A stretch of 64,000 bases of DNA. Source: an uncultured Rivularia sp. Lineage in GTDB: Bacteria; Cyanobacteriota; Cyanobacteriia; Cyanobacteriales; Nostocaceae. Position numbers and translations under genes: made by a program. Position 1 is the first letter of the stretch, and each line of letters starts with the position of its first letter. Under the pieces are notes generated by a model. The model was given only the letters and a program-made list of their open reading frames with translations. It was not told the DNA's origin and made no database searches. The DNA lies in NCBI GenBank assembly GCA_963665115.1, contig OY762007.1, positions 2,656,001 through 2,720,000 on the forward strand, given 5' to 3'. This document shows, piece after piece, positions 1,244 to 55,578 of this stretch.

Positions 1244-1478
1244 ATTTTAGATTTTAGATTTTGGATTTTGGATTGAAATTTAAACAGTTGCCGTAGGACT
1301 AAAAATAAAAAGTATCTTATTCTTTATCAGTTGCATTATTACCTAAGCTAGCAAATACGCTTGCGCGTTTTCAAATAATCCAAAATCCAAAATTCTTAAG
1401 TTTTCAGGTGTATTTATAGGATTAATCCAAAATCCGTTAGCGTAGCGTGTCCGAAGGACATAATCCAAAATCCAAAAT
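1244..1478. repeat. Heptamer STRR-type tandem repeats (ATTTTAG/ATTTTGG and the complementary AATCCAA blocks)
   Basis: attttag attttag attttgg attttgg at ~1244-1272; aatccaa aatccaa at ~1376-1392 and ~1424-1478. Confidence 0.8.
1436..1462 (-). mobile_element. Small dispersed double-hairpin micro-element (SDR-like) inserted in an STRR unit
   Basis: aatcc-G[TTAGCGTAGCGTGTCCGAAGGACAT]A-atcc; same family as the tRNA inserts at 54656-55560. Confidence 0.8.
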
Positions 1479-9049: not shown

Positions 9050-9076
9050 TATGTCCTACAGACACGCTCCGCTAAC
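9050..9076 (+). mobile_element. SDR-like double-hairpin micro-element inside a GTAG/CTAC REP-like palindrome
   Basis: aag-T[ATGTCCTACAGACACGCTCCGCTAA]C-gatg, located within GTAGTGCG(9014)...CGCACTAC(~9102). Confidence 0.8.
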
Positions 9077-27218: not shown

Positions 27219-27293
27219 TAGCGAGCAAGATGCTTGTCCTGGCGGGACACGCTGCGTTAGCGGAGCGAGACGATAGTCTTAGGCAGCACTACA
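27219..27293. mobile_element. REP-like repeat (GCGAGCAAGATGCT..GCACTAC) carrying nested SDR-like inserts
   Basis: TGTCC-TGGCG-GGACA hairpin, then G[TTAGCGGAGCG-AGAC-GATA-GTCT-T]A at 27256-27281; related partial composite at ~33117-33155. Confidence 0.7.
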
Positions 27294-53687: not shown

Positions 53688-53913
53688 ATTATATTGTTCG
53701 CGATCGCACGAATCTTGTAGTACGAATATTTCCGCAAATCAAACACGCTCCTATAATACAGAACCGCTTTAAGCAACCCGGTTTTTCAAAAAACCGGGTT
53801 TTTCCACGATAATTATAACAATGACCAAATATTTTTTATAGACTATAATTCTTGCACGGCAAGCATAATAGTCTATTTAACTCCAAGCTTTTCCGTTTAT
53901 TTCCAAAAAAACT

Positions 53914-53955
53914 TGTAGTACCCCCTTGACACACCTGTAGTATGTTATGTAGTAT
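53914..53955 (+). promoter_or_regulatory. Sigma70-type promoter of the tRNA array overlapped by three TGTAGTA direct repeats (putative repressor operator)
   Basis: -35 TTGACA 53926-53931, -10 TAGTAT 53950-53955; TGTAGTA at 53914, 53936 and 53948. Confidence 0.7.
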
Positions 53956-54034
53956 TAGGTTACAAGGGTAATACAGCAACTACAAATCGCTGACATAAAC
54001 CCAACCGAACCATGAAAATTGAATCGCCATATAT

Positions 54035-54108
54035 GGGGTTGTAGCTCAGTTGATTAGAGCGCCTGTCTGTCGAACAGGAAGTCGCGGGTTTGAATCCCGT
54101 CATCCTCG
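54035..54108 (+). tRNA. trnD: tRNA-Asp(GTC)
   Basis: Cloverleaf with CCTGT-CT-GTC-GA-ACAGG; T-loop TTTGAAT is non-canonical. Confidence 0.85.
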
Positions 54109-54112
54109 TGTT

Positions 54113-54188
54113 GTCCGGGTGCAAGGGCGTTTAAGGCATCGGTCTGCAACACCGACAATCGTGGGTTAAAATCCCACCCCGGACTCCA
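54113..54188 (+). tRNA. trnC: tRNA-Cys(GCA)
   Basis: GTCCGGG/CCCGGAC acceptor, TCGGT-CT-GCA-AC-ACCGA, U73 plus encoded CCA; atypical D arm and T-loop TTAAAAT. Confidence 0.75.
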
Positions 54189-54194
54189 AATAAT

Positions 54195-54266
54195 GCAGAG
54201 ATAGTGTAATTGGCAACACCACAGTCTCCAAAACTGTTGTTCTAAGTTCGAGTCTTAGTCTCTGCG
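54195..54266 (+). tRNA. trnW: tRNA-Trp(CCA)
   Basis: GCAGAGA/TCTCTGC, ACAGT-CT-CCA-AA-ACTGT, CTAAG-TTCGAGT-CTTAG. Confidence 0.9.
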
Positions 54267-54294
54267 TTTATGGTGTCGTCAGCACTATAAAAAT

Positions 54295-54374
54295 GGGTCG
54301 GCTCGCCTATTGGTGCGGGCAGCTGTCTGTAAAACAGTCCACTCTGGTTGTGAGTTCAATTCTCACCCGACCCA
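54295..54374 (+). tRNA. trnY: tRNA-Tyr(GTA)
   Basis: GGGTCGG/CCGACCC, GCTGT-CT-GTA-AA-ACAGT, extended variable loop, GTGAG-TTCAATT-CTCAC. Confidence 0.85.
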
Positions 54375-54378
54375 CTAT

Positions 54379-54463
54379 GGAGAGGTCGCTATTGGTAAGG
54401 TAAGCTGTTTGCTAAACAGTCGTGGATGTAAGTTCATTGTGGGTTCAATTCCCTCTCTCTCCG
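54379..54463 (+). tRNA. trnS: tRNA-Ser(GCT)
   Basis: GGAGAGG/TCTCTCC, GCTGT-TT-GCT-AA-ACAGT, long variable arm, G73. Confidence 0.8.
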
Positions 54464-54466
54464 CCT

Positions 54467-54540
54467 GAGAACGTGGTGTAACTGGATAACATCTCAGATT
54501 ACGAATCTGAAGATTGTAGGTTCAAGTCCTACCGTTCTCG
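54467..54540 (+). tRNA. trnR: tRNA-Arg(ACG)
   Basis: GAGAACG/CGTTCTC, TCAGA-TT-ACG-AA-TCTGA, GTAGG-TTCAAGT-CCTAC. Confidence 0.9.
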
Positions 54541-54546
54541 TTGCAT

Positions 54547-54613
54547 GGGAAAGATGTTGAAATGGCTGGCTTGAGATGCTGAACCAGTTCATTTGATAGT
54601 ATCCATCTTTCCT
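54547..54613 (+). pseudogene. Degenerate tRNA-like hairpin
   Basis: GGAAAGATG...CATCTTTCC closing stem and inner GCTGG/CCAGT pairing, but no T arm. Confidence 0.45.
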
Positions 54614-54620
54614 TCTTTAT

Positions 54621-54767
54621 CCCCCGGTAGCTCAATTGGTAGTAGCGCCTGTTTGTTAGCGTTCACACAGTGAGTCGTTAGACTAAGCGTGTCTGAAAGA
54701 CATAGAACAGGAGGTCGTCAGTATCTCCCGGAGAGAGACGCTGCGCTAACAATTCTGACCTGGGGGA
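54621..54767 (+). tRNA. trnF: tRNA-Phe(GAA) interrupted in both the anticodon and the T-loop
   Basis: CCCCCGG/CTGGGGG-A acceptor; CCTGT-TT-G[48 nt insert 54656-54703]A-GA-ACAGG; GTCAG-T[27 nt insert 54723-54749]CAATT-CTGAC. The GAA anticodon is inferred from the insertion rule. Confidence 0.75.
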
Positions 54768-54772
54768 CTCAT

Positions 54773-54845
<73 letters not shown>

Positions 54846-54849
54846 TTAT

Positions 54850-54923
54850 TGGGAAGTAGGCAAATAGGTAAAGCCGTCGCACTTTGAATGCGAAATTTGA
54901 AGGTTCGATCCCTTCCTTCCCAG
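54850..54923 (+). tRNA. trnQ: tRNA-Gln(TTG)
   Basis: TGGGAAG/CTTCCCA, TCGCA-CT-TTG-AA-TGCGA, GAAGG-TTCGATC-CCTTC. Confidence 0.9.
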
Positions 54924-54928
54924 CTTAT

Positions 54929-55028
54929 GCTGCTGTAGCCCAACTGGAAGAGGCGCTGGTCTTAGAAACCAGGCGTTGTGGGTATCTCCCTCCGGGAGAC
55001 GCTCCGCTAACAACTCCCACCAGCAGTA
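54929..55028 (+). tRNA. trnL: tRNA-Leu(TAG) with a 27-nt insertion in the T-loop
   Basis: GCTGCTG/CAGCAGT, CTGGT-CT-TAG-AA-ACCAG, GTGGG-T[54984-55010]CAACT-CCCAC; short variable loop. Confidence 0.8.
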
Positions 55029-55071
55029 TTATCCTGTAGTGCAGTTAATAAATGCTGCCACTTGGATTCAT

Positions 55072-55144
55072 GGGTTGTTAGCTCAGTTGGCAGAGCATCC
55101 GCCTTTTAAGCGGAAGTGCGTAGGTTCAATCCCTACACAACCCA
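55072..55144 (+). tRNA. trnK: tRNA-Lys(TTT)
   Basis: GGGTTGT/ACAACCC, TCCGC-CT-TTT-AA-GCGGA, GTAGG-TTCAATC-CCTAC. Confidence 0.9.
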
Positions 55145-55148
55145 CCTT

Positions 55149-55222
55149 ACCCCTGTAACCCAATTGGAAGAGGTGCCAAACTTAAAATCTGGAAGTTGCT
55201 GGTTCAAATCCAGTCAGGGGTA
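55149..55222 (+). tRNA. trnL: tRNA-Leu(TAA), intronless, short variable loop
   Basis: ACCCCTG/CAGGGGT, CCAAA-CT-TAA-AA-TCTGG (one mismatch), GCTGG-TTCAAAT-CCAGT. Confidence 0.8.
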
Positions 55223-55280
55223 TTGCAGAGGCATTTTAGTCTTTGTTTTTATAGGAGTGAATCTAACATTTCTAGTTTAC

Positions 55281-55354
55281 GGGGTCATAGCTCAGTTGGA
55301 TAGAGCGCTAGTTTTGCAAGCTAGAGGTTAGGGGTTCAATTCCCCTTGATTCCA
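55281..55354 (+). tRNA. trnA: tRNA-Ala(TGC)
   Basis: G3:U70 pair, CTAGT-TT-TGC-AA-GCTAG, AGGGG-TTCAATT-CCCCT. Confidence 0.9.
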
Positions 55355-55358
55355 TTAT

Positions 55359-55459
55359 GGTGTCAGAAGTCAAAGTGGTCGAGACGCTTGTTTGTGGAAC
55401 AAGTAATTAGCGGGTATGTCCTTACGGACACGCTCCGCTAACAAGTCCCGTCTGACACC
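55359..55459 (+). tRNA. trnH: tRNA-His(GTG) with a 26-nt insertion in the T-loop
   Basis: G-1 plus GTGTCAG/CTGACAC-C, CTTGT-TT-GTG-GA-ACAAG, GCGGG-T[55416-55441]CAAGT-CCCGT. Confidence 0.8.
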
Positions 55460-55466
55460 CCTTTAA

Positions 55467-55578
55467 GGAAGATGCTGCTCATGGGAGAGCAACTGCATAA
55501 GGAAAACCAGAGTAAGGGTCACACTTAGGGGGTTCTCCCAAAGGGAGACGCTGACGCGAACGATCCCTCCATCTTCCT
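55467..55578 (+). pseudogene. Ser-like tRNA gene (possibly GGA anticodon, 8-bp acceptor) with damaged anticodon arm and a 26-nt T-loop insertion
   Basis: GGAAGATG/CATCTTCC, D stem GCTC/GAGC, variable arm TAAG/CTTA, GGGG-TT[55535-55560]CGATC-CCTC. Confidence 0.6.

Follow-up and report, generated by a model that had tools for sequence, protein, structure and literature searches.

Nested small repeats in the anticodon of a cyanobacterial tRNA-Phe gene and a junction rule for their insertion

The nested repeats analyzed here most likely belong to the small-dispersed-repeat (SDR) kind of the Nostocales. Families SDR1-8 of Nostoc and its relatives are reportedly treated by Elhai et al. 2008, Genome Res 18:1484, where eight families of 21-27 nt are said to be distinguished, three of them sharing a structure with compensatory changes, and where heptamer arrays, minitransposons and other copies (as nests) are said to serve as hosts. 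The elements at this locus resemble SDRs in their very small size and in being dispersed in many copies (151 of 24-30 nt here, against the reported range of 21-27 nt), and both the compensatory shared structure and the nested insertion reported for SDRs are found in them. Their distribution is likewise centered on Nostocaceae and sparse elsewhere, a related 18-base pattern being present in 15 of the 24 genomes sampled in that family and in 26 of 201 genomes of the phylum, while the exact inner pattern was found only in records of Rivularia/Calothrix type or of unclassified cyanobacteria. In the available portions of later papers, SDR elements are credited to the 2008 work (PMC5861425, PMC4390886, PMC13756078, PMC3116915), SDR5 is given as 21 nt (PMC13756078) and placed between bases 3 and 4 of HIP1 (PMC4390886), and SDR function is described as still not known in 2026. 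SDR5-like placement is common to a relative of the present elements, with 20 matches of the layout between HIP1 bases 3 and 4 in the genome, but these HIP1-type copies measure 22-24 nt. The available part of PMC5861425 cites no SDR outside Nostocaceae, whereas similar elements were seen here in some outside genomes. No consensus for a numbered SDR family is given in the same portions of the citing papers, and nothing further was contained in the accessible text of PMC2703918, PMC2884548 or PMC4476775; neither the last of these nor searches for the Nostoc intron repeats yielded a consensus.

Other known systems share some features with these elements. REP/REPIN repeats with their RAYT genes and the ends of IS200/IS605 elements are also short hairpins on one strand that cause no target duplication and are accompanied by Y1 enzymes. 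However, the REP/REPIN foot GTAG is absent from the present elements, which begin with TT or TA after a target YG and insert into REPs rather than being REPs; no RAYT gene flanked by a cognate array of them was found, and near Y1 genes they lie inside separate GTAG repeats. An IS200/IS605 derivative would be expected to lose no target bases, whereas two are replaced in nearly all polymorphic insertions described below. The group I intron of cyanobacterial tRNA-Leu UAA is inserted after position 34, and this position is shared by the anticodon insert reported here; the latter is 49 nt long, has no ribozyme core or Rfam match and does not allow the anticodon to be restored, and most insertions of its family lie antisense in T-loops.

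The locus was found in a 64,000-nt window, the whole stretch of DNA analyzed, from an uncultured Rivularia sp. with a genome of 8.69 Mb, 38% GC and 2618 HIP1 octamers. It forms part of a long tRNA gene array (Table 1) in which ARAGORN and Rfam each called 11 genes from 54034 onward, with interrupted genes missed; the tRNA-Phe gene at 54621-54767 was called by neither program. This gene is likely a pseudogene and is a dispensable copy within a cryptic tRNA array, an intact tRNA-Phe(GAA) being present elsewhere in the same genome (G000:5882103). The dispensability of the array and the existence of the intact gene would explain why insertions are tolerated here; three further array genes in the window carry T-loop elements. 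According to the available part of PMC8421152, cryptic tRNA arrays are normally silent, are spread by horizontal transfer, frequently show insertions and deletions and include some pseudogenes. The locus itself represents ordinary decay of a dispensable tRNA gene, with the warning that tRNA finders overlook genes interrupted by such elements. Two other stretches of the array were also noted. The promoter region (53780-53960) holds repeated direct repeats of TGTAGTA type, with a 31-base indel polymorphism among relatives, and these resemble the trn operon regulatory repeats in the available text of PMC8421152. Between tRNA-Arg and tRNA-Phe (54545-54615) lies degenerate tRNA-like sequence called by neither finder.

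Table 1. Positions of the tRNA array, the tRNA-Phe gene and family members within the 64,000-nt window
Feature	Position	Strand	Remark
Extended array of tRNA genes (type: cryptic trn operon)	54034..55575	+	end coordinate approximate
tRNA-Phe(GAA) gene	54621..54767	+	broken in anticodon and T-loop; aligned with empty orthologues
G34, the G of the YG^AA target	54655	+	empty alleles have G-AA here
Outer element, 5' part	54656..54661	+	TT start and first half of GC-GAA-GC mini-hairpin
Inner element, 23-nt body plus AA	54662..54686	+	AA assignable to element or host loop alike
Outer element, 3' part	54687..54704	+	second hairpin (5-bp stem, GAA loop); terminal TA replaces anticodon AA
Third family element, 28 nt	54722..54749	-	antisense in T-loop of the same tRNA-Phe
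Family member in T-loop of tRNA-Leu(TAG)	54983..55010	-	
Family member in T-loop of tRNA with GTG (His) anticodon	55415..55441	-	assigned from sequence
AC-ended family member in T-loop of degenerate tRNA gene	55532..55560	-	
Free outer-type copy	1437..1462	+	within heptamer array upstream of ABC transporter gene
Intergenic family member	9050..9075	-	
Intermediate subfamily member	27257..27281	+	second hairpin inner-type (A-start stem, GATA loop)

An initial annotation, made from the sequence alone, had described a 48-nt insert in the anticodon. The same insert was recovered here but at 49 nt (54656-54704), its last A having been counted as tRNA; it stands in place of the AA of empty orthologues, for a net gain of 47 nt. 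The outer element (54656-54661 plus 54685-54704), which had been called nearly identical to 1436-1462, does differ from 1437-1462 at only 3 of 26 positions, and two of these three differences constitute a compensatory change from a T-A to a C-G pair. The heptamer array that holds the free copy is, we presume, STRR-like. The annotation was also right that the inner element splits a GAA loop of the outer one, but the outer element has two such loops, of which the first (GC-GAA-GC) is the one divided; its second hairpin exists as proposed, and a 5-bp stem closing a GAA loop describes it better. The inner element at 54662-54684 was found as described, except that its ACA loop is a decayed GNA loop, the first inner loop reading GCA in the orthologous nested allele (L004) and in other copies of the genome. 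Both strands of the tRNA-Phe gene at 54621-54767 carry insertions. Removal of the body from 54656-54704 with the terminal TA retained would leave a GTA (Tyr) anticodon on a Phe body, and no tRNA-Phe allele with a GTA anticodon was present among 19 orthologues.

These orthologues came from a DNA search of 61 genomes that yielded 30 loci, with the Phe gene in 19, of which 8 were aligned. At the anticodon, 11 are empty, 6 carry one element and 2, from this genome and G003, are nested. Among the one-element alleles, five are of outer type and one has another kind of element inserted at that base; three of the five (L002, L007, and L011) hold an uninterrupted 26-nt outer element identical to the one here. 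With empty, outer-only and nested states all present among the 19, the nesting that had been proposed is real, and the inner and outer elements likely arrived one after the other. It is quite improbable, in comparison, that a 49-base composite formed elsewhere and entered the anticodon as a single unit: the inner element does occur within outer-type elements at many unrelated loci in relatives, some of which may spread as units, but the identical outer element stands without it at this very site in three relatives, and among the outer-type hosts listed the second hairpin seen here recurs in one only, the orthologous tRNA site. A tree built from 15 arrays without removal of the elements does not place the two nested alleles as sisters; this tree is not reliable because of its long branches and open forks.

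The inner element also behaves as a unit of its own, as the initial annotation had supposed. It has 4 copies in the genome at no more than 4 mismatches, including the nested one, and each of the other three splits the first loop of a HIP1-inserted relative. Its exact degenerate pattern gave 95 matches in 19 of 27 genus genomes, compared to 0 for the reversed control, and 81 stretches in a species-wide genome collection, with 0 matches in viral contigs. In this collection, 85 matches fell in 81 loci and both flanks were available for 84, among which G precedes the element in 83, Y occupies position -2 in all 84 and AA follows in 83. A G^AA target had been claimed, to be refuted by a lack of further copies or by copies with other flanks, and neither outcome occurred. 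Hosts of the 84 are 39 outer-type elements, 16 HIP1-type elements, 17 other GC-GAA-GC repeats and 12 sites outside GC-GAA-GC loops, several of the 12 being presumably IS200/IS605-type ends; a second, overlapping set of 87 contexts, partly biased toward composites, gave the same picture. Chance similarity or local duplication is thereby reduced to a negligible probability and can be regarded as refuted: the insert alone does fold no better than shuffles in a standard thermodynamic model (z -0.35 and -0.66), one that did not predict the 2-bp mini-hairpin, but the elements are multi-copy and polymorphic with fixed junctions, and reversed patterns found nothing in the genus search.

Relatives of the two elements are numerous. 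A structural scan of the genome produced 198 matches and a length-matched Markov control 41, with 134 versus 0 for the main structural class. Among the 198 matches, 151 fall in classes whose first stem is GC or AC and measure 24-30 nt including two terminal bases, so that the nested elements have at least 151 relatives in this genome; the inner element measures 23-25 nt. Long ORFs contain only 4 of 139 family members, each of them in frame. The initial annotation had held that the family is defined by structure rather than sequence, which was not upheld: the inner and outer elements are identical at 15 of 26 positions (shuffle test, p 0.0035), and subfamilies that mix first and second stems of both types provide intermediates between them, so that sequence and structure are both conserved. 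The shared two-hairpin architecture is itself supported by compensatory changes. A set gathered without structural filtering holds 32 distinct single inserts, and the standard layout is present in 21. Within these 21, C-G and G-C alternate at one stem pair, 8 versus 12 (0 of 5000 shuffles), two further pairs change once each (p about 0.05) and the remaining pairs are invariant, this covariation resting on few independent changes. Covariation from structure-filtered sets was not used as proof because it would be circular. The remaining 11 of the 32 inserts have longer first stems, tetraloops or a decayed loop, and most still form two hairpins. Nests of several levels, with three or more elements, were additionally seen in heptamer arrays on the minus strand (G000:627302, 7892742, and 8235298).

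Many pairs of empty and filled sites in the tRNA arrays of the genus establish YG^AN as the target, together with the orientation of insertion and the two-base replacement. Indels were gathered among 29 tRNA-array loci without a structural filter, giving 71 clean presence/absence events of 20-52 nt. Of these, 43 are T-starting inserts at YG^AA (representing 27 site signatures, as orthologous events are not independent), 5 are spurious fits and 23 do not fit, the last group consisting of indels that involve promoter repeats or have the size of a tRNA, plus three elements whose flanks are altered. All 43 have one orientation relative to the target, 36 being antisense and 7 sense to the tRNA, and they end in TA (33), AC (6), CA (1) or AA (3); in 40 of the 43, the target AA is replaced by the last two bases of the element. 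An empty paralogue was available for 41 of the 151 genome members, and its flanks are invariably separated by 2 bases, in most cases AA, AT or AG and rarely others. Insertion thus follows a rule: after YG and in one orientation, at G^AN and mostly at G^AA. The earlier suggestion that the element regenerates its own target does not agree with the replacement of AA in 40 of 43 cases; only new GAA loops are brought in. Since two target bases are replaced, a used site is destroyed, and since GAA loops within the elements serve as targets in their turn, nesting follows. Insertion into the first-loop position is not a rare event, with 29 inserts matched there in the genome, mostly of a CA-ended subfamily and a few perhaps false.

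Within tRNA arrays, occupied signatures amount to 67 of 259 loop sites versus 13 of 292 others, a difference inflated by the similarity of T-loops, and a genome-wide preference for hairpin-loop targets was not detected (18 of 50 flank clusters versus 249 of 750 GC-matched sites). Excision footprints were sought in 336 T-arms, where a single TA was seen, and 12 TG and 8 GT T-loops may be natural variants. The TA lies at about 1199 of L008, in a tRNA with a CCA anticodon whose T-loop was expected to read TT; L005 is filled there by a TA-ended element, and the L008 sequence is a possible excision footprint.

Both hairpins of the elements fit motifs known from DNA. The first loop of the family is GNA with N free, and tetraloops of the second hairpin are GNNA in 74 of 76 cases (54 GNYA versus 20 GNRA). 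According to the available text of PMC13037366, the mini-hairpins that GCGNAGC and GCGNNAGC form in DNA are extraordinarily stable, are much weaker as RNA and occur at primase and polymerase sites of single-stranded phage and plasmid origins; that paper treats them as structural motifs and as origin or promoter signals, with no mobile elements mentioned in that text. DNA-type GNA/GNNA loops, together with insertions on both strands and a predominance of antisense ones, favor folded single-stranded DNA, and the mobile form is quite likely to be single-stranded DNA folded into two GNA/GNNA mini-hairpins. No replication-strand bias was seen in this genome, which is without clear replichore skew. 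Two results weigh against taking this picture too simply: standard folding gives the insert no extra stability, and the bias toward loop targets seen in tRNA arrays was not shown across the genome.

An RNA form appears improbable on the same evidence, whether as an RNA reverse transcribed from a primer at a staggered cut or as a small tRNA intron. The R2 retroelement uses a target-primed staggered cut that deletes two target bases, and such a route would account for the two-base loss, just as the position after base 34 recalls cyanobacterial anticodon introns. Yet the loops are GNA and mostly GNYA rather than GNRA, and no G-T pair exists in 126 stem cells of the 21 standard inserts. The antisense majority among the insertions and the lack of an Rfam match speak against either version, and excision of an intron would leave GTA rather than GAA in a gene that is also broken in its T-loop.

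As for what moves this DNA, a Y1 enzyme is the single most likely candidate. According to the available parts of PMC6006769, PMC3733652 and PMC8266576, IS200/IS605 and RAYT enzymes perform guide-directed single-strand cleavage and include cyanobacterial subclasses; no element like the present ones is described in those parts. There are 10 Y1 matches in the genome, which belong to the IS605 and RAYT types. Elements sit inside GTAG-type repeats beside two of these genes (L055 and L058), and none lies within 1.5 kb of 8 of the 10. All 49 genomes tested contain Y1 genes whether or not they carry elements, so that co-occurrence is uninformative, and no autonomous long element with these ends was found among 64 unpaired 5' halves. 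Judging from the chemistry in the accessible text of PMC8266576, a single HUH cut followed by strand transfer would lose no target bases. Because Y1 genes are in every genome tested, no autonomous partner was found and two bases are lost, we give less than an even chance to this candidate mover, which would be a Y1 HUH enzyme working in trans, either a TnpA of IS200/IS605 type or a RAYT. The literature searched, consisting of papers other than the original SDR description, contained none that names a mover or the two-base replacement. Clustering of the elements in mobile and repeat DNA may reflect survival in neutral DNA.

A process without a dedicated transposase would fit some of these observations, and we consider it unlikely, if a serious competitor: a nick at YG^AN would be extended by a polymerase or primase that copies the ~25-base element off a donor strand, two target bases would be displaced as a flap by the 3' end of the copy, and host repair would trim this flap. 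Exact length is kept while the last two bases vary at a GTAG repeat whose empty form is AG (filled copies end in AG 14, TG 7, TA 7, AA 2, and CG 1), mini-hairpins of these motifs mark primase/polymerase sites (available text of PMC13037366) and the autonomous partner is missing. Copying and trimming alone would, however, account neither for the constant 5' start nor for the sharp 3' boundary two bases past the stem, nor for the need for A after G. The variable ends at the AG-target repeat may reflect a two-base heteroduplex or later hairpin correction, and the AG and TG ends may thus have arisen by correction of the host hairpin instead.

We regard it as fairly probable that two related ~25-base elements of the SDR kind were nested sequentially as folded single-stranded DNA placed by a borrowed enzyme. 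In such a process, the element would travel as single-stranded DNA folded into two mini-hairpins, and the borrowed enzyme, acting in trans, would place it at YG^AN, either cutting the target strand on both sides of an extruded AA or leaving a 2-base flap to be trimmed afterward. The last two bases of the element (TA, AC, CA, or AA) take the place of the two of the target, and GAA loops carried by the elements serve as targets for later ones. More tentatively, and with rather low confidence, a protein may recognize the tandem GNA/GNNA mini-hairpins, with pairing between the 5' TT(C/A) and GAA as a guide and an exact two-base swap, which would amount to a hitherto undescribed chemistry for inserting single-stranded DNA. 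Elements of this kind were already described in 2008; the junctions seen here offer clean evidence on the old question of how ~25-base repeats move. The junction rule and the DNA loop signature together make the identity of the mover testable; if the tentative reading with a hairpin-recognizing protein is true, the junction rule and the tRNA alleles in their three states would constitute an assay, usable in vitro and in vivo, to find the mover of the smallest known mobile DNA.

Several observations on Y1 genes and neighboring elements were made in passing. At least four RAYT-like Y1 genes of G000 (L055, L057, L058, and L060) are each flanked by their own GTAG repeat family, and the gene L060 is apparently broken near its start. 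Four family-like inserts were found in and beside an IS605-type element of another genome (L132, G216:C1:5043700-5046200); they hit tnpB, the beginning of tnpA and the stretch that follows tnpA, and two of them are apparently in frame in its genes. Finally, in arrays of other families (L015, L025, L026, and L028), different elements, which start with TA or TTGG, occupy the same G^AA sites, so that the target rule extends beyond the genus.
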